This document shows positions 3,104 to 22,848 of a stretch of 24,000 nt of DNA, one piece after another. The stretch is from Polycladomyces zharkentensis (GTDB lineage Bacteria; Bacillota; Bacilli; Thermoactinomycetales; JIR-001): NCBI RefSeq assembly GCF_016938855.1, contig NZ_JAFHAP010000018.1:9825-33824 (forward strand), read 5' to 3'. The stretch's first letter is position 1. The number at the start of each line of letters is the position of its first letter. Both the position numbers and the translations under genes were made by a program. The notes under the pieces are model-generated. The model saw only the letters and a program-made list of their open reading frames with translations. It had not been told where the DNA came from and ran no database searches.

Positions 3104-4024
3104 GTGGGAGAGCAGATGATTCCACTGTTCGACGGAGTCGGACATCCAGTGTGGTTGGACCGGGAAGAATTTCGCAAAGAGGTGATCCCCCAACATTTGG
3201 AGGCGGAATGGAATCATCCGGAGGAATTGTACACCTTTGTGGTGCAGATTTTTCGGGACGGTTTTGTTGAAGAAGCCGATCGCGGCGCCGACCGATTGCT
3301 GGAGTTGTACAACCGGGCTGAAGGTGTTCTTCTGTTGAAATCGCTGATCCTGTTGCGCAAGGGTGAAGACGAAGAAGCGGAAACCTTGGTGCGTGAATGC
3401 ATGGAGAAGTACCCGGATCGTGGAATGGCACACACCTTCTTGGCCCGTATTTATGACAAACGGGGAGACCGGGAAGGTGTGATCGATTCGCTGCGCAGGG
3501 GACTGGAGCTGGAACCCAATCAGGAGACGGCACTGTTGTGGTGGGTCGATCTGACGATCGAAGAAGGCGGCAAGAGCAAGGCGATAGAGGAACTGAAGCC
3601 GTTTGTGGAGAAAGAAGGGGCTTGGTGGCCGAAATTGATCGCGGGTCGTCTTCATCTGGAAGAGGGGGACACCTCAGCAGCGGTTCATCTTTTCAACCAT
3701 GTGCTGGAGTGGTTTCGATCCCGACGGGATGAACAGACGCCCCCGTCATTTGATGAAGAGATCGCGTTGATGACGGTCGTCACCATATTGAGCAAACACG
3801 GATGCCGGGACGAATTAATCACGCTGTGTGATCAGTATTGTCGGACGGATCACTCCACACCTTTTGCGGTTCTGGATTATGCACAGGCGCTGGTCGAAGT
3901 GGGGCGTATCGAGGAAGCGGTCGACCGGTTGCAACAAGCTTCCAACTTCGTCCTTCCCGAATATGTGCATTTGGTGGAACGAAAACTGTCGGAACTGAAG
4001 CAACGGTTTTCATTGAAAATCTGA
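3104..4024 (+). CDS. TPR-like repeat protein (hypothetical)
   Basis: The frame is that of ORF 3086-4024. GGAGGG at 3092-3097 lies 6 nt before GTG 3104; ATG 3116 is an alternative start. Helical-repeat segments such as AHTFLARIYDKRGDREGVIDSLRRGLELEPNQ match the TPR pattern. Confidence 0.6.
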   Translation: MGEQMIPLFDGVGHPVWLDREEFRKEVIPQHLEAEWNHPEELYTFVVQIFRDGFVEEADRGADRLLELYNRAEGVLLLKSLILLRKGEDEEAETLVRECMEKYPDRGMAHTFLARIYDKRGDREGVIDSLRRGLELEPNQETALLWWVDLTIEEGGKSKAIEELKPFVEKEGAWWPKLIAGRLHLEEGDTSAAVHLFNHVLEWFRSRRDEQTPPSFDEEIALMTVVTILSKHGCRDELITLCDQYCRTDHSTPFAVLDYAQALVEVGRIEEAVDRLQQASNFVLPEYVHLVERKLSELKQRFSLKI

Positions 4025-5014: not shown

Positions 5015-6164
5015 TGAACATGAGCGACGGGCGCGGCGCAGTATTTTGACCACCTGTTTGGCGGCATTGTTCGGCTTTATGGGAATCGGTGTGGTGGACC
5101 CGATTTTGCCGATCATCGCCAATCAGATCGGCGCGACACACTGGCAGGTGGAAATGCTGTTTACCAGCTATATTTTCATGATGGCGTTCATCATGATCCC
5201 CAGCGGGATCTTGGCCGCGCGTTGGGGCAGCAAACGAATCATGGTGTGCGGACTTTTTCTGGTGGCGGTCTTTGCATCGGCTTGTGCGATGTCATCCACC
5301 ATCGGCCAATTGATGGCATTTCGTGCCGGTTGGGGAATGGGCAATGCGATGTTTTTCGCCACATCCATGTCCATCCTGATCGGGATGGCTGCCAACTTGG
5401 ATCAAGCCATGGGTTATTATGAGGCCGCTTTGGGGATGGGTATGTCGTTCGGTCCGCTGTTGGGCGGATTGCTCGGTCAGTTCGGATGGCGGTATCCGTT
5501 TGTGGCCACCAGTGTCCTGATGCTGTTGGCGTTTGTACTGACGATTCTCCTGGTTCAGGAGCCAAAAGGTCAGGCCAGCCGACGTGCCGGTTTCGGCGAC
5601 TTTGTCTCCGCCCTCGCATATCGTCCTTTTCTGTTGGTGGCCGTGGCGGCGATGCTGTACTACTACGCCTTTTTCACCGTTTTGGCTTATTCACCCTTGT
5701 TGTTGAAGTTGGATGCCATTTCTTTGGGGCTGATTTTTTTCGGATGGGGTGTCGGTTTGGGGATCGGTTCCACCAAGTGGGCGCACGGATTGTTGCATCG
5801 CCATTCGCCGATGTGGGTGGTCCGTCTGGGAGCGGGACTGATGGCGGCCGTACTGCTGTTGGTGCTGCTGTCGCCCAACAAAGTGATCACGATCGCCGTG
5901 ATCGTATTGTCGGGTTTTGTGTCCGGGTTGAACAACACCGCATATTCGACATTGGCGATTGAGACATCCCAAGCCCAACGGAGCATCGCTTCAGGTGCGT
6001 ACAATTTCATTCGTTGGCTGGGTGCCGCCGTGGCACCCGTGACGGCCGGATTCGCCTCCACGTTCTTTCCGACGGCACCGTATGCGATCGCGTTATGCTG
6101 CATGCTGATTTGTGCAGGACTGCTGATGTCGTTCAAAAGCACGCAGACACCGGTTGCATCATGA
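4986..6164 (+). CDS. MFS transporter (multidrug-efflux type, 12 TMS)
   Basis: GGAGGG lies 6 nt before ATG 4986. The 392-aa protein is strongly hydrophobic, with an MFS-like loop (GILAARWGSKR) between the predicted TM2 and TM3. It is coupled to the MerR gene by a 29-nt overlap. Confidence 0.9.
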   Translation: MKSVGSMIPDEHERRARRSILTTCLAALFGFMGIGVVDPILPIIANQIGATHWQVEMLFTSYIFMMAFIMIPSGILAARWGSKRIMVCGLFLVAVFASACAMSSTIGQLMAFRAGWGMGNAMFFATSMSILIGMAANLDQAMGYYEAALGMGMSFGPLLGGLLGQFGWRYPFVATSVLMLLAFVLTILLVQEPKGQASRRAGFGDFVSALAYRPFLLVAVAAMLYYYAFFTVLAYSPLLLKLDAISLGLIFFGWGVGLGIGSTKWAHGLLHRHSPMWVVRLGAGLMAAVLLLVLLSPNKVITIAVIVLSGFVSGLNNTAYSTLAIETSQAQRSIASGAYNFIRWLGAAVAPVTAGFASTFFPTAPYAIALCCMLICAGLLMSFKSTQTPVAS

Positions 6165-9575: not shown

Positions 9576-9600
9576 CCCAGCGGTTTTTCCGCTGGGTTTT
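9576..9600. terminator. second hairpin, possibly a bidirectional terminator
   Basis: CCCAGCGG (9576-9583) pairs with CCGCTGGG (9589-9596). It is followed by TTTT on the + strand and by TTTG on the - strand. Confidence 0.6.
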
Positions 9601-9854: not shown

Positions 9855-9894
9855 AACACAAAAATCCCCCTGCCTTTTGTATGTACGGGGGATT
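9855..9894 (-). terminator. rho-independent terminator (- strand)
   Basis: AATCCCCC (9863-9870) pairs with GGGGGATT (9887-9894). The - strand reads ...GGGGGATTTTTGTG. Confidence 0.6.
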
Positions 9895-9949
9895 CTGATG
9901 ATCGTTTATTATTTCGTTTTTACCGCAGAGATGGGAAACGGAGGAAATT

Positions 9950-9978
9950 AAAAAAAAATAGCGCGGTGTCCGCGCTAT
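9950..9978 (-). terminator. strong rho-independent terminator (- strand)
   Basis: ATAGCGCG (9958-9965) pairs with CGCGCTAT (9971-9978). The - strand stem is followed by a run of 9 T. Confidence 0.75.
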
Positions 9979-10509
9979 TGATTAGGAGACGGTGATGGTG
10001 GAAATCACAGAGGGTGAACCACAAAGAGAGGAGGGTTTCATCTCTTCCCAACACCCCTGGAGTGGATTCTGGACATTTTCAATATATAAAAGGATTGCAA
10101 AAGAGTTTGTGATAAATTGCACAAAAATAAGTGACAATATTGTGGCAGTGATTTTCTTATATAGCGCCGTTATTCAGAACTTATCTTCCACAACCTATGC
10201 GGTATATCTCACAAAGCAAACATCGGGATGAACCACGATTTAGGGGTAGAGGTAGCGAATGCTGATTGTGCGGTTGAGGTTGCATCTATAGCAACTCAAG
10301 TCATTGCGTTTATACAGGAAACTCAGGGATCACACGTTCATATTCATCCTGAGCATTGGTAATGGCCAACTTAGAATACACTTCAAGATTTACGGCATGC
10401 ATGTCCAGAATAAGTCTTGAGCCATGTTAACAGGAAGTGACGCAACCAACTTATGCGGCAAATGGATTTGACCATGCTGGCCTGATCAGAATACTTCTTG
10501 AGTAAAGTG

Positions 10510-12040: not shown

Positions 12041-12047
12041 GGAAAAG

Positions 12048-12103
12048 CCCCCCTTTAAGAAGATTTACGCCCACTTTTTATAGCGTGTCTTCTTTAAGGG
12101 GGG
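12048..12103. repeat. 16-bp inverted repeat (hairpin) adjoining the transposase remnant
   Basis: CCCCCCTTTAAGAAGA (12048-12063) pairs with TCTTCTTTAAGGGGGG (12088-12103) with one mismatch and a 24-nt loop. Confidence 0.6.
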
Positions 12104-12289
12104 CACTTCATGTTTCCGGCTTTGTCTGTTCTTCCTTCTCATCTTCAATGACGCATATACGGATTCAGTCCAACCGGGAGTATACCGCAAAATATCTATT
12201 GCCGTTGATTTAACGGTTCTTGCCTTTGTCAACTCAATCGTTGACCCGAAAGCAGAATAGTGTGCGTAAGTCTACCTTGAGGGGGGACT

Positions 12290-13602: not shown

Positions 13603-13635
13603 AGAGTTCAACCTCTGATGGGGAGGTTGAACTCT
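13603..13635 (-). terminator. 13-bp hairpin downstream of the exporter gene
   Basis: AGAGTTCAACCTC (13603-13615) pairs with GAGGTTGAACTCT (13623-13635). The T-tract is weak on both strands. Confidence 0.55.
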
Positions 13636-13729: not shown

Positions 13730-14665
13730 CTAGACGGCATCGAGAATGTATCCTTCCAATTCGTTCAGCATTTGCAATAAAGCGGCACGGATTTCAAATT
13801 CCTTGCGGGTTTTGGGGAGCGGCATGTCTTCACAGGTTTCACGCAAGGCGCGGATCTCCTCCTGGATTTGGTGGAAATCATCCGCACCGGAACGCAATGT
13901 CTCAGACATTTTCCTGAGAATGGAGGCCAGCATCTTCCCCTGAACGATCACCTGATCCACACGGGAGACAAGCGCGAGCATATGTTTGATACGTTCATAC
14001 TGCTTTTCTTTCTTTTCGAAGTGATGAAACCGGAGGACGTCATCCGAAGTGATATAGTTGTCTTCATGCAGTAGCGCTTCTTTTTTTCCTTGTTGAATCA
14101 GATTGTGGATGGTGAGGATTTCCGCGCCGTCCCACAGATAGTTCTTCTCCTCCAATGCACGGGCGAAATGATCGAACACGTCGGCGACCGCCAGTTCCAA
14201 TCGGCGGTGAATATTGAGGAGTTGTTCTTTGCGGCTCGGCATGTAGAGCCAGTTGATGGTGAGTGAAACGGTCATGCCGGTGAGGATCAACCAAATCTCA
14301 TTCAATAAAATGTCCATATCCAGATGGCCGGCGGTATACACGTGAATGGTGATGACGGTACCGAGTACCACGCTGCGCTCAGTCTTGGTTCGTACCAATA
14401 TCGGAATCAGAAGAAGCAGGATCAAGCCGATGACGTAAACATGAAACCCCAGCAAACTGAACAGCAGCGTATCCACTGCCAGTGTGAAAAACAGGGCAAT
14501 CACCGTTTTTCCGGCTGTGACCACCGTTTCTTTTCGCGTGTTCTTCAATAGAAGAGCCGCGACGATCCCGGTGAATTCCGCTAATTTCAAATGCAGGGCA
14601 TTGGCGATGTAAATGGCGAGCACCACGGCAACAACGGTTTTGGCTGTTCGGAATCCGATTCTCAT
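13730..14665 (-). CDS. UPF0421/aromatic acid exporter (ArAE/FUSC-like, YgaE-type) membrane protein
   Basis: The start MRIGFRTAKTVVAVVLAIYIA is typical of this family. The N-terminal half has 4-5 TMS and the C-terminal half is a soluble helical domain. AAGGATGAG lies upstream of ATG 14665. Confidence 0.85.
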   Translation of the reverse strand: MRIGFRTAKTVVAVVLAIYIANALHLKLAEFTGIVAALLLKNTRKETVVTAGKTVIALFFTLAVDTLLFSLLGFHVYVIGLILLLLIPILVRTKTERSVVLGTVITIHVYTAGHLDMDILLNEIWLILTGMTVSLTINWLYMPSRKEQLLNIHRRLELAVADVFDHFARALEEKNYLWDGAEILTIHNLIQQGKKEALLHEDNYITSDDVLRFHHFEKKEKQYERIKHMLALVSRVDQVIVQGKMLASILRKMSETLRSGADDFHQIQEEIRALRETCEDMPLPKTRKEFEIRAALLQMLNELEGYILDAV

Positions 14666-14699
14666 GGCTGGCTCATCCTTTTTCTGAAGTGACTGGTGC

Positions 14700-14910
14700 G
14701 TGTCTGGCAAATCCGTGGGGGAAAGATTCCCGGACGGGCGAAAACGTGCGAAAACAAGGAAAGCGCAGGTTGAAATCGCGGGCAAATTCCTCTCGGCGAC
14801 ATACATTGCCCGCGTCCTGCGCTCCGGGTCGGAGCGGTCATCACCTGCTCCCGTGCAGGGCACAGGTGGAGCGAGACGGGAAAGCAATTTGGACAGGATT
14901 TACCAGACAC
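14700..14910 (-). ncRNA. structured intergenic element, copy A (candidate cis-regulatory RNA; class unknown)
   Basis: It is a paralog of 18839-19063. It has a 15-bp closing helix (14700-14714 with 14896-14910) and internal helices at 14842-14868, 14820-14836, 14763-14769 with 14816-14822, and 14777-14785 with 14806-14814. The strand is assigned from G-U-compatible substitutions between the copies. Confidence 0.5.
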
Positions 14911-14915
14911 TCGCT

Positions 14916-14955
14916 AAAAGGCAAGAGCCGGTGGACCAATTTCAGTAGCCGGCTC
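14916..14955 (-). terminator. hairpin after lutC (possible terminator, or part of element A)
   Basis: On the - strand, GAGCCGG (14955-14949) pairs with CCGGCTC (14931-14925) with a 17-nt loop, followed by TTGCCTTTT. The U-tract is interrupted. Confidence 0.4.
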
Positions 14956-15003
14956 CCATGTGAAAAGTATAGGCAAAGGATACGTGCTGTTCAATGGGTT
15001 TCG

Positions 15004-15717
15004 TCAGCGGTCCGTCACAACGATGCAGGTGGCTTTGACGGGTCCGTGTACGCCCACGACCAGGTTCATCTCAATGTCGGCGCTGTTGCTGGGGCCGGAG
15101 ATGAAGTTGACACTGGACGGAATCGCTTCCCCTCGTTCGATCCGCTCGCGGATCATGCGAGCGGCTTGCGTCATGCGGGGTACCAGCGTACTCAGGGGAA
15201 CGATGGCGATGAAGTAACGGGGGAGAAGGCTGACGGAGCGGCCTTTTCCTCCGCCGCTCATCAAGACGACGGTTCCCGACTCGGCCAGTGTGATGTCGCT
15301 GATCGCGATGCCCACATCGGCCTGTTCCGCGCGTTCGATATTGATTTTTCCTTTTTCGGGATTCCATATATGGACATCCAACCCGTACGGATTGTCTTGA
15401 GTGGCGAACAGGGAGGACAACCCGAACTCGGCAAAACGCGGGTCATCCGAACAGATCACTGATTTTCCGTCGTACGAGCGGATCGTTTCCAACAATACGT
15501 CAGGCAGGGATGATGATTCCGTTCGCCGAACATCCGTATGGATCATTCGACATTGACGTTCAAACACTGACAACAGCTCTTCCGGTGTCGCACCGGCGAG
15601 GGTGCGCCATTGTGGTCCGTGTTTCCAATGAGAGGGCCGCTTCACCGGTTCTGAGATACGGGGACGCCCCAGTTTCCGGGCGATTCGCTCCAGAAACGCT
15701 TCACGGTTGTAAATCAT
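15004..15717 (-). CDS. lutC: lactate utilization protein C (LutC/YvbY family)
   Basis: The 237-aa protein carries a LUD-domain pattern ([17 protein letters not shown]...). Its start overlaps the lutB stop (ATGA). It is the third gene of the lutABC order. Confidence 0.9.
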
Positions 15718-17144
15718 GGCCGCTCACCTCGTTTACGCCGATTTTCAAACCACTCGCGAAAGGTTTCCCGTTCGGGGGAGGGAAGGTCACGAATCGATGT
15801 CCACGGTTGGAGCGGTCCGGGACCTTGACGGATGACGCCATCCTCCTCCCAGGGGAGAAGAGCGGTCCGTGCCAGTTTGGTTCCCCACCGGTACAGGCGG
15901 GGTGATTCGGCCACCATGCCGAACGCCTTCATCGCCAAACGCTCGCCGAGCGGCGATTGCCTTTTCTCTTCGGCCGTTTTTTGCCGGTGTCGGATCAACA
16001 GATCGTGCAACGGAATGTTCACCGGGCATGCTTCCGTACATGCGGCACACAAACTGGACGCGTAGGGCAGTTCCCGGTATAGATCCTCGCCGCCCAACAA
16101 TGGTGAAAGCACGGCACCGATCGGACCGGAGTAGATGGACCCGTAGGCTTGCCCGCCGATGTGGCGGTAGACGGGACATACGTTGAGGCAGGCACCGCAT
16201 CGGATACATTGGAGCACACTTTGGAATTCGGTGCCCAGGATGTCGGATCGCCCGTTGTCGATGATCACCAAATGAAACTCTTCCGGACCGTCTACGTCAC
16301 CAGCCGCTTTGGGTCCGGTCAGACAGTTGATGTAGCTGGTCAGCTTCTGGCCGACGGCGCTGCGGCACAGCAATCCCACCATCACCTCCAGCTCCTCCCA
16401 AGTGGGTACGATCCGCTCCATCCCCATCACTGCGATGTGGACGGGCGGCAGGGAGGTGACGAGCCGGCCGTTTCCTTCATTGGTGACCAAACAGACGGTC
16501 CCCGATTCGGCAACGGCGAAGTTGCACCCGGTGATCCCCACTTCCGCGGTCAAAAAATCGGGACGAAGTTGCTGACGGACGAACGCGGTCATTTCTTCCG
16601 GCTCAGCGGAACCGGTATATCCCAGTTTCTCCGCAAACACCCGGCGAATCCGCTCACGGTCCTTGTGAACGGAGGGTCCCACGATGTGGGAGGGGGGATC
16701 ATGGTCATCCACTTGCAGGATGTATTCCCCCAGATCCGTTTCCACCACCCGGCAGCCGATCGCTTCAAGGACATCGTTCAGGCTGATCTCTTCCGTCACC
16801 ATCGACTTCGATTTGACGATGCGGCGGGCATCTCTTTTTTGCACGACATCCCGGATGTAGGAGGTTGCTTCCTCCGCCGTTTGTGCGAAAAAGACATGTC
16901 CCCCGAGCGCATGTACCCGGTCGCTCAATTGCTCAAGGTAATAATCCAAGTGTTCCAGGGTGTGACGACGAATCTCTTCACCCAGCCGCCGCCATTCTTC
17001 CCAATCACCCAATTCCTCGGCGGCACGCAGGCGGCTTGTCCGCATGCGTTCCTGTGCGGCACGGACCGCGCTCCGCATGAATTGGTCCCGAATGCCTTTG
17101 TCCACTCGCCGGTAGAAAACGACATCCCCAAATTGAATTCCCAT
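15714..17144 (-). CDS. lutB: lactate utilization iron-sulfur protein LutB
   Basis: The 476-aa protein has two 4Fe-4S ferredoxin-type Cys clusters ([13 protein letters not shown] and [10 protein letters not shown]). It aligns closely by eye with my recollection of the Bacillus LutB sequence ([30 protein letters not shown]). Confidence 0.95.
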
Positions 17145-17885
17145 TTAGCTCCCCTCCTTCTCCAGGCCGGACTGCAACACCTGCGCAATGTGCATGACCC
17201 GAATCGGTTTTCCCTGCCGGCGAATCCGACCACCCATGTGCATCAGGCATCCGCAATCAGCTCCGATCAGGACCTCGGCGTCCGTTTCTTCGATGTGCAC
17301 TACTTTTTCGTCGACCATCTGTTGGGAGATGGGTGCCATTTTTACGGAAAAGGTGCCGCCGAATCCGCAGCAGTCGTGCGCGCAGGGCAGTTCGGCCAGC
17401 GACAGTCCCTTGACGTTGGCCAACAGCTTCATCGGTGCATCTTTCACCCCGAGCAGGCGGGTCATGTGACAGGAACGATGGTAGGTGGCTTTGGCGGGAA
17501 GTGTTGCATTGACATCTTCCACTCCCAGGATTTCTGTCAAAAATTGTGTTAATTCATAACATTTTTCCGCCAATGCGCGTGCTTTTTCCTGCCACTCCCA
17601 TTCGTCCTCTCCTGAAAAGAGATGAACATATTCCTTCAACATGGCTGTGCAGGAACCCGAAGGGGCCACCACATAATCGGCGTGGGCAAATGTCTCGATC
17701 ATGTGGCGGGCGGCTTTTTTCGCTTCACGATGATACCCGCTGTTGAACGCGGGTTGGCCGCAACAAGTTTGTGCGACGGGGAAATCCACCTCACAGCCGA
17801 GCCGTTCCAACAGTTCCACCGTGGCTTGTCCGACTTCCGGATAAAACAGATCGGCCAAACACGTGATGAACAACGACACTTTCAC
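17145..17885 (-). CDS. lutA: lactate utilization (Fe-S) oxidoreductase LutA
   Basis: It has CCG-domain motifs ([20 protein letters not shown]). The likely start is GTG 17885 (VKVSLFITC, matching my recollection of MKVSLFVTC in Bacillus LutA), with a GAGGAG RBS upstream. The ORF track's start at 17897 abuts that RBS. Confidence 0.92.
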
Positions 17886-17961
17886 GGAAATCCCCACTCC
17901 TCTCCCTGTTCATCAGGTCATCAGATGATTGTGTAAAAACGCGACGCAAAGGAACCTTGTG

Positions 17962-18678
17962 TCACTCCTGTTCCCCCATTCGTCCTGACAACAGTTGTTC
18001 CACCCCGTTGAGATGATCCAGCATCCGCAAGCGCGCTTGCTCGGCATCTTGGGCTGCAATCGCATCGTAAATGGCGCGATGTTCACGGTTCAATCGTTCG
18101 GCGATGGACCGTTCGGCAAAGAGGCCTTGTTGACGTGCTTCCTGCATGGCAGTGATGATGATTTCCGAGACGCTGTTCAACAGGTTGACCAGCATGTGGT
18201 TTCGTGCCGCTTGGGCGATGGCCAGATGAAAAGTCCAGTCCAGTTGTTCCCCGCGGGTATGATCATGTACATACAATTCCATCTGGTCCAGAATGTACCG
18301 GAATCGCTCGAGATCTTCCTCCGTCCGGCGACGGGCGGCAAAAACGGCAGAACCGGTCTCCAGCAACCGACGGATTTCAAAAAGTTGACGCACGTCTTCG
18401 CGGTTCATCAGCAGGGCATGCGACAACGTGGAGGATAAAGCGCGCGGATCGTACTGCCGCACATAGGTTCCTTCTCCCTGCCTCATTTCGATCAGCCCCA
18501 TGGCCTTGAGGGCGCTCAGTGCTTCCCGGATCGCCGAACGGCTGACTCGAAAGGATTCTGCCAGTTGTTCCACCGAAGACAGTTTGTCTCCGGGTTTGAG
18601 CGATCCATTCTTGATTTGTTGGATCAACTGATCCGCCACTTGTTCGTAGATCTTTTTCTTGTGAATCTGTTGATACAT
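17962..18678 (-). CDS. lutR: GntR/FadR-family transcriptional regulator, LutR-like
   Basis: It has an N-terminal GntR wHTH (GDKLSSVEQLAESFRVSRSAIREALSALKAMGLIEMRQGEGTYV) and an FCD-type C-terminal domain. It sits directly upstream of lutABC. ATG 18678 is preceded by GGAGTGGAG. Confidence 0.85.
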   Translation of the reverse strand: MYQQIHKKKIYEQVADQLIQQIKNGSLKPGDKLSSVEQLAESFRVSRSAIREALSALKAMGLIEMRQGEGTYVRQYDPRALSSTLSHALLMNREDVRQLFEIRRLLETGSAVFAARRRTEEDLERFRYILDQMELYVHDHTRGEQLDWTFHLAIAQAARNHMLVNLLNSVSEIIITAMQEARQQGLFAERSIAERLNREHRAIYDAIAAQDAEQARLRMLDHLNGVEQLLSGRMGEQE

Positions 18679-18838
18679 GGTCTCCACTCCTGATGACATC
18701 ACCGGATACGCTTGAGTGCGTGTCTGATTCCCTCCCGGTCCGCATGCTTGCCGTATAGAGAGAATCTCTGTGTGGGAAAAGGCTGCCTTTCCTTTCGATC
18801 CCTTTCAAAACGCTGAAGGTCGCGTTCATATCAGGGCA

Positions 18839-19063
18839 TGTCCGGTAAATCCGTGTACGAGCCAATGCTTTCCCGGGTGAGCGAAGACTTGAGTCCGGCC
18901 GAGCGAAGAAGCGGAACGCGCAGGATGGAATCGCGGGCAACTTCCTCCGGTGAAGCGTACATTGCCCGCGTCCCGCACTCCGGGTCGAAGCGGCCATCAC
19001 CTGCTTCCTTGCAGGGTGCAGGTGAAGCGAGCCGGAAAAGCATTTGGACGTATTCACCGGTCA
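18839..19063 (-). ncRNA. structured intergenic element, copy B (candidate cis-regulatory RNA; class unknown)
   Basis: It is a paralog of 14700-14910 with the same helices (18998-19024, 18976-18992, 18918-18924 with 18972-18978, and 18932-18940 with 18962-18970). It also has an extended 15-bp helix, 18862-18876 with 19032-19047. Confidence 0.5.
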
Positions 19064-19074
19064 GTCAATTGGCC

Positions 19075-19144
19075 GGGTGACCATTTTCTCCCCTTGGCTT
19101 TTGTCTCACGTCTTCAAAGGGTCACTGACGGAAAATGGTCACCC
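19075..19144. repeat. 14-bp perfect inverted repeat downstream of the aldo/keto reductase gene
   Basis: GGGTGACCATTTTC (19075-19088) pairs with GAAAATGGTCACCC (19131-19144), with a 42-nt loop. Confidence 0.6.
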
Positions 19145-19151
19145 TGATCGG

Positions 19152-20183
19152 TCACACTCTCGTGGTCGGCTTGTTTTGTGATTGATTCTGTAATTGCGAA
19201 CGCGACGGTGGGCCGAAACTTTCCCCCGACGGTACGGGATCGGTTACCTTTTCCCGAAGCATGCGGTCAATGCGCGTCAGATCTTCCGCGGTCAGCTCCC
19301 ATCCCATCACGCCGTCCGCTTCTTTCAGTTGTTCCGGACGACGGGCTCCCCACAGCGCGACCGAGACGCCCGTTTGTTGCAAAGCCCAGCGTACGGCCAA
19401 CTGCGTGACGGTTTTTCCTTTTTCCTCAGCCAGTTTTTTCAGCTCGTCAACGGCTGCCAGATACTGACGGAAACGCTCTCCTTGAAACATGGGGCTGCGA
19501 TGGCGAAAGTCGTCTTGCGGGAATGTGGTGTCCGGCGTAAATTTTCCGGTCAGCAGCCCGTGTGCCAGCGTGCCCCAGGTCAGGGTGCCGATTTGATGCT
19601 CCGCGCAGTAACGGAAGGTGGTGTCAAGCTCCTCCGTCTGGAACAAATTCAATCTCGGCTGGTTGCTGTGTAATGGTGCGGTTTGCCTCCAAACATCCAT
19701 TTGCTCAGGCGAATAGTTGCTGACGCCGATCGCACGGATTTTGCCGTCCTGATACAATCGGTGCAACGCTTCGGCCGTTTCCTCGATCGGAACGTCGGGG
19801 TCGGGCCAGTGCACTTGATACAGATCGATATAATCCGTGCGGAGCCGGCGCAGGCTGTCCTCCGCTTCCCGGAAAACGCGATCGCGGGATGAATTGCGCC
19901 AGACCCGCCCTTGATCATTCCACTCCAAACCGACTTTGGTGGCGATGATCACCCGATCCCGTCCGTGTTCGGCCACGGCTTCACCAACGATCTCTTCCGA
20001 CAGGCCCATACCGTACACGGGGGCGGTGTCGATCAGGTTAATCCCTTGATCCAAGGCATGGCGGATCGCTCGTACCGCTTGGGCACGATCCGTGCCTCCC
20101 CATCCCCAACCGCCGATCGCCCAGGTTCCCAGGCCGATCCGCGACACGTTCAAATCGGATGTACCGAGTCGGATATATTCCAT
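19152..20183 (-). CDS. aldo/keto reductase (YhdN/IolS-like)
   Basis: MEYIRLGTSDLNVSRIGLGTWAIGG..., LIDTAPVYG and YIDLYQVHWPD are typical AKR motifs. GGGAGG lies 7 nt upstream of ATG 20183. Confidence 0.9.
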   Translation of the reverse strand: MEYIRLGTSDLNVSRIGLGTWAIGGWGWGGTDRAQAVRAIRHALDQGINLIDTAPVYGMGLSEEIVGEAVAEHGRDRVIIATKVGLEWNDQGRVWRNSSRDRVFREAEDSLRRLRTDYIDLYQVHWPDPDVPIEETAEALHRLYQDGKIRAIGVSNYSPEQMDVWRQTAPLHSNQPRLNLFQTEELDTTFRYCAEHQIGTLTWGTLAHGLLTGKFTPDTTFPQDDFRHRSPMFQGERFRQYLAAVDELKKLAEEKGKTVTQLAVRWALQQTGVSVALWGARRPEQLKEADGVMGWELTAEDLTRIDRMLREKVTDPVPSGESFGPPSRSQLQNQSQNKPTTRV

Positions 20184-20365
20184 TTCATGACCTCCCGTTA
20201 CCGGATTATTTCTATTGTCTTGTATCGAGCGTCCGCTCGTCAAGGATGTCAGCGCTTTCAAAACTAATATTTTCCTTCCCCGGTTTCACAGCCGGTTTGG
20301 CCGTTTTTCATCCCCCGTGATATAGTTAAAAAGGGAACAAATGTGTTCCGTTACGGAAGGAGAGG

Positions 20366-21187
20366 GTGGGATTGACCTTTTTGGATGTCGCTGTGGAAGC
20401 AGCCCGCCGCGCGGGTGCGTTGATCCGTGAAAAGGCGTACCAAACGAAACAAGTGAAACAGAAAACGTCCGCTTCCGACTTGGTAACCGAAGTGGACCAA
20501 CGTTCGGAAGAAATCATTCGGGACATCGTTTTGCGGCATTTTCCCGACCACGCCATCCTGGGAGAAGAGGGTGTGGCCGCGGGAGACAAAACCGTAGACG
20601 AAGTATGGGAAGAAAGCCGGCAACACGAATATGTCTGGATCGTCGATCCCATCGACGGCACCAGCAATTTCGTACACGGATTTCCCTTTTTCTGCGTGTC
20701 CATTGCACTGGCGAAGAATGGAGAAGCGATCACCGGCGTCGTCTACGATCCGATGCGGGATGAGCTGTTCACCGCGGAAAAAGGGAAGGGAGCGTATCTG
20801 AACGGACAGCCGATCCGTGTCTCGAGCGAGGAGACACTGGCTGAAAGCTTGATGGCGACAGGCTTTTCGTATGGGCAGAGAAGAGTCGAGCAGCAATTGC
20901 GCACATTGATGCGGACGGCTCCGCGTTTCCGGAGTCTTAGAAACGGGGGTGCCGCCGCTTTGCATCTGGCGTATATCGCCGCGGGGAGACTGACGGGATA
21001 TTGGGAGTTGGGGCTCAATCCGTGGGATCTGGCGGCAGGTGTCTTGCTGGTGAAAGAAGCGGGAGGCGAAGTGACCGACACCTGGGGAGGGCCGTTTGAT
21101 CTCACGGTGCGAAACATGTTGGCCACCAACGGAAAGGTGCACCGGGAAATGGTGGAGCTGTTGCGGGAAGCGCAGGCTGATATGTAA
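20366..21187 (+). CDS. inositol monophosphatase family protein
   Basis: It has the IMPase motifs ILGEE, WIVDPIDGTSNFVHG and WDLAAG. The start is GTG 20366 or, better spaced from the GGAAGGAGAGGG RBS, TTG 20372. Confidence 0.9.
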   Translation: MGLTFLDVAVEAARRAGALIREKAYQTKQVKQKTSASDLVTEVDQRSEEIIRDIVLRHFPDHAILGEEGVAAGDKTVDEVWEESRQHEYVWIVDPIDGTSNFVHGFPFFCVSIALAKNGEAITGVVYDPMRDELFTAEKGKGAYLNGQPIRVSSEETLAESLMATGFSYGQRRVEQQLRTLMRTAPRFRSLRNGGAAALHLAYIAAGRLTGYWELGLNPWDLAAGVLLVKEAGGEVTDTWGGPFDLTVRNMLATNGKVHREMVELLREAQADM

Positions 21188-21423
21188 CGTGACGGCAGTT
21201 GGTTGACAAAGTCGGGCGCAGATTTTCCGCCTTCGTTTTCCGCGCTCGCCGGGAAATTCGGCGCCGCCTGAAAGAGGGTGGTTTCCCCACGGGCAACCGT
21301 TGAGTGCGCGAAAGAGGAGAGAGGGAAAACGGCGCACCCGAAATCGTGAATGGTTTGATCCACTTTGTCAGCAGTCTGTGACGGTTACATACGCGAAATG
21401 CCGATAACAGGGAGGCGGATACA

Positions 21424-22848
21424 ATGACGATCGATTGGCAGAAAGAAGTGGAGTCCCGGAAAGACGAGCTGCTGGAGAAACTGAAGGCGTTTTTGTCCAT
21501 CGAAAGTGTGTTGGACCCGGATACTGCCGGAGAAGGCGCCCCGTTCGGCAAAGGGATCGATGAGGCGTTGACCTACATGCTGAAACTGGGGGAAGAAAAC
21601 GGATTTACCGTCAAAAACCTGGACGGATACGCCGGACATATCGAGTATGGTGAGGGAGAAGAGACGATCGGCGTTTTGTCCCATATCGATGTGGTGCCGG
21701 CGGGGGACGGCTGGACCACGCCGCCGTTTTCGCCCGACATTCGCGACGGCAAATTGTACGCCCGCGGTGCGATCGATGACAAAGGACCGACGATGGCCGC
21801 GTTTTTCGCCCTGAAGATCGTGAAGGAACTGGGCCTCCCGCTGTCCAAAAAGGTGCGCCTGATCCTGGGTACCGACGAGGAAACCTACTGGCGCTGCATG
21901 GATCACTATTTCAAACATGAGCCGATGCCGGTGATGGGCTTTACGCCCGATGCCGATTTCCCGTTGATCGTGGCGGAAAAAGGCTTCCTCGACATCTCCT
22001 TGCGCGGAGAAGTGCCGTCCGGCGAACCGGTCGCGGACGGGGAAGATACCTGGACGCTCGCTTCCTTTACCGCCGGACAACGGGTGAACATGGTGCCCGA
22101 TTTGGCCAAGGCCAAATTGGTGGGCGAAGGCGATGTGTTTGGCCTGAAGGAAAAGTATCAGGAATTTCTGCTCAGCCGCCGTATCCGGGGGTATGCCGAG
22201 GAAGCGGATGACCACCTGATGCTGGTGTTGGAGGGGGTATCGCATCACGGTTCCGAGCCGGACAAGGGGTTGAACGCCGCGCTGGAGCTGATCCGGTTCC
22301 TGAAGGAACAGGTGCGGTTGGATCAAGACGGTCAGCGTTATGTGGATTTCGCCCATCGTTATCTGGTGGACAGCTTCTTCGGTGAAAAGATGGGACTGGC
22401 GCAGTCGGATGACATCGTGGGCAAATTGACGGTCAATGCCGGTGTGTTCCACTATGAACGGGATGAATCCCCTTTGGTACGGATCAACGTGCGATACCCC
22501 ATTTCCGGGGATCATGAAGCGATTTTGCGGCAGATCGACGAATTGGTCGGTCCGTACGGGCTGCAGGTGAAAGAGGTGGATCACAAAGCGGCCCATGCCG
22601 TGGACAAAAAGCACGAGCTGGTACGCACGCTTTCCCGGGTGTATGAGGAGCAAACCGGGCAAAAAGCCGAATTGCTCGCCATCGGCGGCGGCACCTATGC
22701 CCGGGCATTGGAGGTCGGCGTGGCGTTCGGTCCGCTGTTCCCGGGGCGTGAAGAGACGGCACACCAGAAGGATGAGCACATCGTCGTGGACGATTTGCTG
22801 AAAGCGACGGCTATTTACGCGCAGGCGATTTACGAGTTGGCGAAGTGA
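21424..22848 (+). CDS. pepV: M20-family dipeptidase PepV
   Basis: The 474-aa protein has M20 metal-binding motifs (SHIDVVP, ARGAIDDKG, GTDEE). Its length and C-terminal pattern match PepV. GGGAGG lies 8 nt before ATG 21424. Confidence 0.9.
   Translation: MTIDWQKEVESRKDELLEKLKAFLSIESVLDPDTAGEGAPFGKGIDEALTYMLKLGEENGFTVKNLDGYAGHIEYGEGEETIGVLSHIDVVPAGDGWTTPPFSPDIRDGKLYARGAIDDKGPTMAAFFALKIVKELGLPLSKKVRLILGTDEETYWRCMDHYFKHEPMPVMGFTPDADFPLIVAEKGFLDISLRGEVPSGEPVADGEDTWTLASFTAGQRVNMVPDLAKAKLVGEGDVFGLKEKYQEFLLSRRIRGYAEEADDHLMLVLEGVSHHGSEPDKGLNAALELIRFLKEQVRLDQDGQRYVDFAHRYLVDSFFGEKMGLAQSDDIVGKLTVNAGVFHYERDESPLVRINVRYPISGDHEAILRQIDELVGPYGLQVKEVDHKAAHAVDKKHELVRTLSRVYEEQTGQKAELLAIGGGTYARALEVGVAFGPLFPGREETAHQKDEHIVVDDLLKATAIYAQAIYELAK

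Follow-up and report, generated by a model that had tools for sequence, protein, structure and literature searches.

In MITEs such as Correia (nemis) of Neisseria, ERIC (IRU) of enterobacteria and RUP of pneumococcus, a folded RNA that is co-transcribed with neighbouring genes can change the processing or stability of the mRNA. Members of the Correia, ERIC and RUP families are dispersed in many copies; their target-site duplications are defined (TA in Correia and in RUP), and transposases that mobilise them are known or suspected. In the Bacillus cereus group, bcr1 and other group A repeats have been described (Okstad 2004; Klevan 2007; Kristoffersen 2011; summarised in PMC3184786). The bcr1 element measures about 155 bp, has a 5-bp direct repeat on its flanks and occurs in tens to more than 100 copies; it is transcribed, its distribution among related strains is not conserved, and its RNA displays compensatory changes (PMC3184786). 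Structure-preserving, strand-specific divergence is thus known for mobile repeats such as bcr1 (PMC3184786), and therefore cannot alone separate a repeat from a regulatory RNA.

The locus examined here belongs to Polycladomyces zharkentensis and lies in a window, i.e. the whole stretch of 24,000 nucleotides. The minus strand of the window carries, judging from Pfam matches, a co-directional run of genes for an aldo/keto reductase (AKR), LutR, LutABC, an ArAE_1-family exporter and an EamA transporter (Table 1). The exporter protein is 100% identical to an NCBI entry from Polycladomyces sp. WAk (Thermoactinomycetaceae). Two copies of one element, each of ~215-230 nt and ~82% identical in the alignment, lie in this run as direct repeats ~4 kb apart, both sense-oriented to the genes, and together they bracket lutRABC. 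Copy A ends 31 nt before the ATG of the exporter gene (14665), and our reading places copy B about 160 nt upstream of the lutR ATG (18678), as the original prediction had it. These are the only full copies in the ~27 kb of this genome that were read (the window and contigs L001 and L272). A repeat scan and an element HMM found no third full copy and no other long repeat family within the window, and extension over its edges by means of the window-edge proteins yielded ~3.4 kb more sequence with no further copy. Moreover, the Logan assembly passes through both copies, which argues for a genome without further near-identical ones. We interpret copies A and B as lineage-restricted, non-coding, strongly folding MITE-like intergenic repeats, with bcr1 as their closest described analogue, that are probably co-transcribed with their neighbours. 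Our confidence in this best explanation is evenly divided, because a target-site duplication and a cognate transposase were not found and both full copies sit at one operon.

Table 1 Features of the two element copies and of the surrounding genes (window coordinates).
Feature	Position	Strand	Basis or remark
Aldo/keto reductase (AKR) gene	20183-19152	-	Pfam
lutR	18678-17962	-	Pfam
lutA, lutB, lutC	17897-15004	-	Pfam
ArAE_1-family exporter gene	14665-13730	-	Pfam
Copy B, AKR-lutR spacer	18838-19066	-	A/B local alignment from 19066; nhmmer match 19071-18828; fold z -4.5
Copy B 5' terminal arm CUGACCGGUGAAUAC	19050-19064	-	Pairs with 18852-18838; closing helix in the MFE fold
Copy B 3' terminal arm GGAUUUACCGGACAU	18838-18852	-	2 mismatches to the arm consensus
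Hairpin CACCUGC...GCAGGUG	18998-19024	-	3' arm deleted in strain L271
Helix GUGCGGG/CCUGCGC around the most conserved hairpin	18918-18978	-	5' arm may instead pair with CCUGCAC 19022-19016
Most conserved hairpin CGCGGGCAA-(21-nt variable loop)-UUGCCCGCG	18932-18970	-	Stem identical in A and B
B-specific 15-bp helix, 3' arm CCGGGAAAGCAUUGG	18862-18876	-	Partner 19047-19032; in copy A, UUCCCG/CGGGAA alone
LutR-box palindrome TCATCTGATGAC, then CTGATGA	17915-17931	-	lutR-lutA spacer, directly upstream of lutA
Promoter-like TTGAAC-17-TATACT	14966-14994	-	End of lutC, upstream of copy A; kept in L273 (5008-5036)
Copy A, lutC-ArAE_1 exporter spacer	14697-14912	-	Alignment to copy B; nhmmer; fold z -4.8
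Copy A 5' terminal arm GUGUCUGGUAAAUCC	14896-14910	-	Exact match to the arm consensus
Copy A 3' terminal arm GGAUUUGCCAGACAC	14700-14714	-	With the 5' arm, 15-bp terminal inverted repeat and closing helix

The homology between the copies spans from 14912 (A) and 19066 (B) to the 3' arms at 14700 and 18838, and these limits are set by a terminal inverted repeat. In copy A the repeat comprises 15 nt with 14 Watson-Crick pairs and one G-T pair; in copy B 11 of the 15 positions match, leaving four mismatches in its closing helix. The element thereby combines terminal inverted repeats with a small size, a lack of coding capacity and a presence/absence polymorphism between relatives (see below), all of them features of MITEs. 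A target-site duplication, another such feature, was not seen: by direct reading, no direct repeat of 2-9 nt flanks copy A or copy B at any plausible boundary, and a loss by decay since insertion is possible. No transposase or IS with matching ends is present in the 27 kb of this genome, nor does the annotation of the window place a TnpA, RAYT or TnpB gene near the copies. A further point against a mobile repeat is the placement of the two copies, in one orientation and 4 kb from each other on either side of a single operon; a local duplication or a functional link would explain this pattern as readily as dispersal would.

The same boundaries bear on a DNA-level alternative, in which the hairpins would act in single-stranded or cruciform DNA as in IS200/IS605 or REP/RAYT-type elements, or the arms would bind a protein, with no role for RNA. 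Such an element would account for a terminal inverted repeat that coincides with the limits of homology, for the variable presence between relatives and for the local clustering of strain differences in copy B; single-strand transposition also predicts that no target-site duplication is formed, and since G-T wobbles are tolerated in single-stranded DNA, a strand bias could arise there too. IS200/IS605 and REP elements, however, lack 15-bp terminal inverted repeats of this type, none of the three genes named above is nearby, and in both copies the fold favours the strand that is sense to the flanking genes, as predicted by selection at the RNA level. The arms, which we also tried as LutR operators and rejected as such, differ from the LutR box that is conserved in the group. 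We therefore regard a pure DNA role as improbable.

The outer end of the copy A 3' arm includes an 11-mer, CAGACACGCAC, that occurs twice in the window (2 matches versus 0.01 expected). One match (14696-14706) precedes the exporter ATG by 31 nt; the second (18716-18726, minus strand) precedes the lutR ATG by 38 nt and lies 112 nt downstream of copy B. In the relative L273, introduced below, ACATAC(A)CCC sits 37 nt before the ATGs of both lutR and the exporter gene. The two matches may represent a common leader or promoter motif, or what is left of an older element end.

We turned to related loci. Sampling around this organism is sparse: the nearest LutR in a protein search is 84% identical and the next ones ~54%. 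Through an exporter protein of 85% identity we reached L273, a syntenic contig of 7 kb from a congener, in which the order of the genes is unchanged and protein identities to the window are 85% for LutR, 85% for ArAE and 91% for LutB. Its AKR-lutR spacer comprises 174 nt versus 473 nt in the window, and its lutC-exporter spacer 135 nt versus 338 nt. The full element is found in neither L273 spacer, both being too short and without a match to the element HMM. At locus A the orthologous flank can be traced to 14925 (E = 7e-12) and similarity returns at the ribosome-binding site, which leaves ~215 nt confined to the window; at locus B, ~300 nt are confined to the window, consisting of the element and an adjoining 70-nt unit with perfect 14-bp inverted arms. 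Thus, both full copies are present in the window and absent at the syntenic L273 sites. Nor does the element occur at the lutR loci of L277 and L278 or at the ArAE loci of L274 and L275. Upstream of lutR, L273 retains GTGUCUGACAAAU, with one mismatch to the terminal-arm consensus, and GTGTCTGACAAAT, one mismatch from that consensus too, lies there within a stretch of ~45 nt whose alignment to the terminal portion of copy A has a score reached by 0 of 300 shuffles. This arm fragment implies that the element family is older than the split of the two species. Judging from these alignments, the family appears to be gained, lost or eroded locus by locus.

The 70-nt unit (19075-19144), whose perfect 14-bp inverted arms GGGTGACCATTTTC...GAAAATGGTCACCC stand 42 nt apart, lies ~10 nt upstream of copy B; the AKR-lutR spacer of L273, being shorter, contains nothing equivalent. 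A half-motif similar to its arms, GAAATTGGTCCACC, occurs upstream of copy A. Either another small palindromic insertion or a portion of the element in a longer version may account for the unit. In L273, a second promoter-like site, TTGATC-17-TAGAAT (5080-5108), spans the empty site of copy A; if it is real, the insertion of copy A split it.

We examined the fold of the element. Computational folding, by which the original prediction might have been refuted, placed both copies well beyond dinucleotide shuffles on the minus strand at 37 °C (MFE z-scores of -4.5 for B and -4.8 for A); the scores on the plus strand are -1.7 and -2.5, respectively. The difference between the strands persists at 55 °C, a temperature that would be relevant if the organism is thermophilic, as we assume for the genus. 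Every helix named earlier was recovered by reading the sequence. GUGCGGG (18978-18972) pairs with CCUGCGC (18924-18918) through two G-U pairs on the minus strand that turn into A-C mismatches on the plus strand. The hairpin CGCUUCG-ACC-CGGAGUG (18992-18976) contains two G-U pairs as well; it overlaps the former helix by 3 nt, so that the two are partly exclusive. In the hairpin CACCUGC...GCAGGUG (19024-18998), a U-G pair of copy A becomes C-G in copy B. The closing helix (19064-19050 with 18852-18838) shows a change from U-A in A to C-G in B that is genuinely two-sided, and the 15-bp helix specific to copy B (19047-19032 with 18876-18862) is present. In the most conserved hairpin, the 9-bp stem (18970-62/18940-32) is identical in both copies and its loop differs at about one third of the positions. 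Indels of 12 nt and 5 nt mark the junctions of the A/B alignment.

Across the six helices of the original prediction, 96.2% of the cells are paired in four sequences, compared to 30-47% after the partner has been shifted by one to three columns. Eight one-sided stem changes lead to G-U on the minus strand, and a single cell in the six helices to A-C. Two-sided changes number one in the six helices and one to three if alternative pairings are counted. A shuffle control on these helices was not exceeded (79/500), and a strand-symmetric fold test without G-U gave 8 versus 8, where forbidding G-U itself shifts the fold of copy B. The last two results, together with the existence of only two independent copies and with a deletion that is tolerated at the strain level, would fit a neutral segmental duplication of spacer DNA without constraint, the structural signal then being a by-product of G+C-richness and of choosing helices on the minus strand.

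We therefore employed a simulation that is independent of the helices chosen: the A/B alignment and its indels were kept fixed, and the same 50 substitutions were re-placed at random positions with matching bases. The MFE of copy B on the minus strand is -104 kcal/mol, compared to -82.4 ± 5.4 for the pseudo-copies (0/200), and the A/B consensus (alifold) energy is -63.9 compared to -46 ± 5.6 under random placement (0/200). The reverse direction, from B to A, had a like outcome; on the plus strand the corresponding fractions were 0.02-0.06. Moreover, paired columns differ between A and B in 14.7% of cases versus 34% for unpaired columns, i.e. 2.3 times more rarely. The simulation does not depend on helices picked on the minus strand, and from it and the contrast between paired and unpaired columns we conclude that the fold is constrained, and that the constraint is greater on the strand in sense to the genes. 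The proposed structure-preserving divergence with a bias to the minus strand is thereby upheld, in line with the 8:1 ratio of changes toward G-U. The statistical comparison comprises two independent lineages, A and B, which puts covariation and the preferred structure beyond the reach of these data. A neutral duplication is further contradicted by the unchanged 9-bp stem beside its divergent loop and by boundaries that coincide with the inverted repeat, and we consider it very unlikely.

The unpaired columns also inform on age. Four-fold degenerate sites differ by 42-50% between the window species and L273, compared to the 34% of the unpaired columns of A and B; by this measure the duplication is not very recent. 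The A/B split is thus old, although probably younger than the speciation from the L273 lineage. The earlier statement that this is no recent duplication stood, whereas the reading it implied, a conserved regulatory RNA of the lutR leader, was not supported, as the full element is absent in L273.

RNAalifold favours a different and mutually exclusive pairing for part of the core, which competes with the six helices. In it, CCUGUGC pairs with GCGCAGG in copy A, equivalent to CCUGCAC with GUGCGGG in copy B, through a change from G-C to A-U, and a competing hairpin, GGAGCAGGU/ACCGCUCC, carries another change from G-C to A-U. Alternative pairings of this kind raise the option of a lineage-specific cis-regulatory leader RNA, riboswitch-like or a protein-controlled attenuator, that was duplicated so that lutR and the ArAE exporter share a signal. 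In such a switch, CCUGYRC (19022-16) would pair with GCAGGUG or GUGCGGG, and GUGCGGG with CCUGYRC or CCUGCGC (18924-18). Both copies are indeed sense-oriented directly upstream of genes, their divergence preserves structure with a bias to the sense strand, and each alternative pairing holds a two-sided change. Copy A presents a GCGCAGG/CCUGCGC helix followed by a U-rich run, UUUCCUUGUUUU, and the terminal-arm fragment upstream of lutR in L273 hints at an old association with that gene. The run is, however, degraded in copy B, and the terminator scan predicts no sense-strand terminator inside either copy; an intrinsic-terminator attenuator, tried as a candidate, was rejected on these grounds. 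Neither did we find a pairing that sequesters a Shine-Dalgarno sequence. With unpaired columns that differ by 34%, there is no conserved unpaired core, and only two independent sequences speak for the pairings, with a shuffle control that was not exceeded. In L273, neither orthologous spacer contains the full element. Considering also the strain and operator data below, we think a leader RNA of this kind rather unlikely. Its most specific form is a leader RNA class confined to Polycladomyces, toggling between CCUGYRC:GCAGGUG plus GYGCRGG:CCUGCGC on the one hand and CCUGYRC:GYGCRGG on the other, triggered by a metabolite or a protein, and coupling lutR to an organic-acid exporter. We judge this form improbable; if it were true, the mobility-like features would reflect a structured repeat that had recently been recruited for regulation.

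Variation between strains was accessible through a JGI contig, L271, which is 98.2% identical to the window and has both copies. In its copy B, a deletion of 14 nt (window 19010-18997) takes out the 3' arm of the CACCUGC/GCAGGUG hairpin, and eight substitutions fall within 115 nt. AKR, lutR and lutA differ by 0.1-0.3% between L271 and the window. By hand count, 3 of the 15 substitutions between the strains lie in stems, and two of these three lead to G-U. The deletion and the substitutions imply that individual copies tolerate damage, although stems are still spared. This avoidance of stems suggests that some selection is still acting in place. For a leader RNA, the placement of substitutions mostly outside stems is a favourable sign and the loss of one hairpin arm in L271 an unfavourable one. 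Some of the L271 variants in each copy carry the state of the other copy, which suggests an exchange between copies A and B or with an unseen member of the family. Over the shared region (14563-22270), the divergence of the two strains is a mosaic, with lutB and lutC differing by 1.5-3.5%, which suggests recombination.

We inspected the spacers for operators and promoters. The palindrome between lutR and lutA (Table 1), which we take to match the published LutR box TCATC-N-GATGA, recurs as TCATCTGATGAC(C/T)TGATGA in the lutR-lutA spacer of L273 (2074-2094) and in the lutP-lutR spacers of the distant relatives L277 (~3805-3830) and L278 (~3850-3875). Judging from this conservation, it is the predicted LutR operator for lactate control of lutABC, located away from the element. 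Another candidate operator, GAAAWTGGTCMMCCGGC upstream of both copies, was discarded, as it is not conserved in L273 and the LutR box TCATCTGATGA lies in the lutR-lutA spacer; TGTCNGACA showed no enrichment. A canonical operator already explains the lactate control of lutABC, which weakens the case for a leader RNA. The implied reading of a possibly lactate-responsive RNA of the lutR leader is not supported: the full element is absent in L273, Rfam has no match, unpaired columns diverge by 34%, L271 carries a deletion, and the operator lies elsewhere.

On the two sides of the empty site in L273, the promoter-like site that follows lutC and the region of ribosome binding are conserved. Between AKR and lutR no promoter-like site was found in either species, and a conserved one precedes AKR in both; copy B is thus probably intercistronic and not a dedicated lutR leader. 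On the plus strand, a hairpin followed by a U-run (19148-19178) lies ~85 nt beyond copy B, and the plus strand folds somewhat better than shuffles. Both would suit an independent small RNA gene that is antisense to the lutR leader and ends at this terminator-like hairpin. Terminator-like sites in the region are no commoner than in shuffles, however, no plus-strand promoter-like site precedes either copy, copy A lacks an equivalent plus-strand terminator, and the wobble pairs favour the minus strand. We give a plus-strand gene hardly any credence.

A protein-coding reading of the element was rejected, as the frames differ between the copies and their indels are not multiples of three; a six-frame search with concatenated pseudo-proteins of both copies gave no match. 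Searches for relatives of the element returned no match in Rfam 15 at gathering thresholds (and noise alone at E up to 10) and none by blastn against plasmid and phage collections. A scan of a genome collection with a loose, G+C-rich hairpin pattern returned at least 120 chance matches, none of those listed resembling the element by blastn. Metagenome and viral scans with a tighter pattern yielded chance hairpins only; they did not return L271, which carries the pattern, so that coverage by that collection is incomplete in this respect. The conclusion that the element has no homologues elsewhere is accordingly weakly founded.

How might MITE-like repeats of this kind act at the locus? Given their orientation, the gene run, the lack of a predicted terminator and, for copy A, the conserved promoter-like site upstream, both copies are most likely transcribed within mRNAs, with copy B preceding lutR and copy A forming part of the exporter gene's 5' UTR. 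Selection would have kept the RNA fold of the sense strand, a long closing helix around several hairpins, and may have acted in situ or on master copies ancestral to A and B. For the host, the repeat would most likely serve as a generic structural mRNA module, for example by hindering decay from the 5' end, by offering a site for processing or by insulating the spacer; sensing of a ligand would have no part in this effect.

Some further features of the window are worth recording. Between 9600 and 12000 the G+C content drops to 36-47% from ~55% elsewhere, in a stretch with a TetR gene and two small multidrug-resistance genes; ~650 nt within it (9856-10509) hold no convincing gene. The Logan contigs L272 and L001 end at 9599 and 9848, so that the assembly breaks there. 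This stretch may be acquired DNA or contain repeats. Farther along, a perfect inverted repeat whose 13-bp arms are separated by 7 nt (13603-13635) lies between the exporter and EamA genes, and an imperfect 22-nt inverted repeat (12042-12109) upstream of EamA; both are probably terminators or operators.

If the MITE-like reading holds, the element represents a further family of intergenic repeats in the Bacillales that are structured and transcribed. It also calls for caution, as structure-preserving, strand-biased divergence of two paralogous copies is insufficient for calling a regulatory RNA when mobile repeats share this signature. Should a leader RNA prove true instead, a repeat would have been caught while being recruited for a lactate regulator and an exporter, and the two copies, the L273 remnant without a core and the L271 deletion strain would form a natural series for testing that recruitment.

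Compared with the riboswitches and attenuators of Bacillota, the element shares a sense orientation upstream of genes, multiple and mutually exclusive helices and, in copy A, a U-rich run. Unlike them, it shows no conservation across species upstream of orthologues, no conserved unpaired core, no clear terminator or Shine-Dalgarno platform and no match to a described RNA family in Rfam; its closing helix would also enclose any expression platform, which riboswitches do not do. With Correia, ERIC and RUP it has in common terminal inverted repeats, the lack of an ORF, an intergenic or intercistronic position and, probably, co-transcription with its neighbours, but within the ~27 kb read it has no demonstrated target-site duplication, mobilising transposase or large copy number. 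From bcr1 it differs by its length of ~215-230 nt, by two known full copies, by the lack of a flanking direct repeat and of sequence similarity, and in that its transcription is predicted. Like bcr1, however, it is a small non-coding intergenic repeat of a narrow group within the Bacillales whose presence varies between related genomes, and its multi-hairpin fold with compensatory and wobble changes points to constraint at the RNA level in one orientation.
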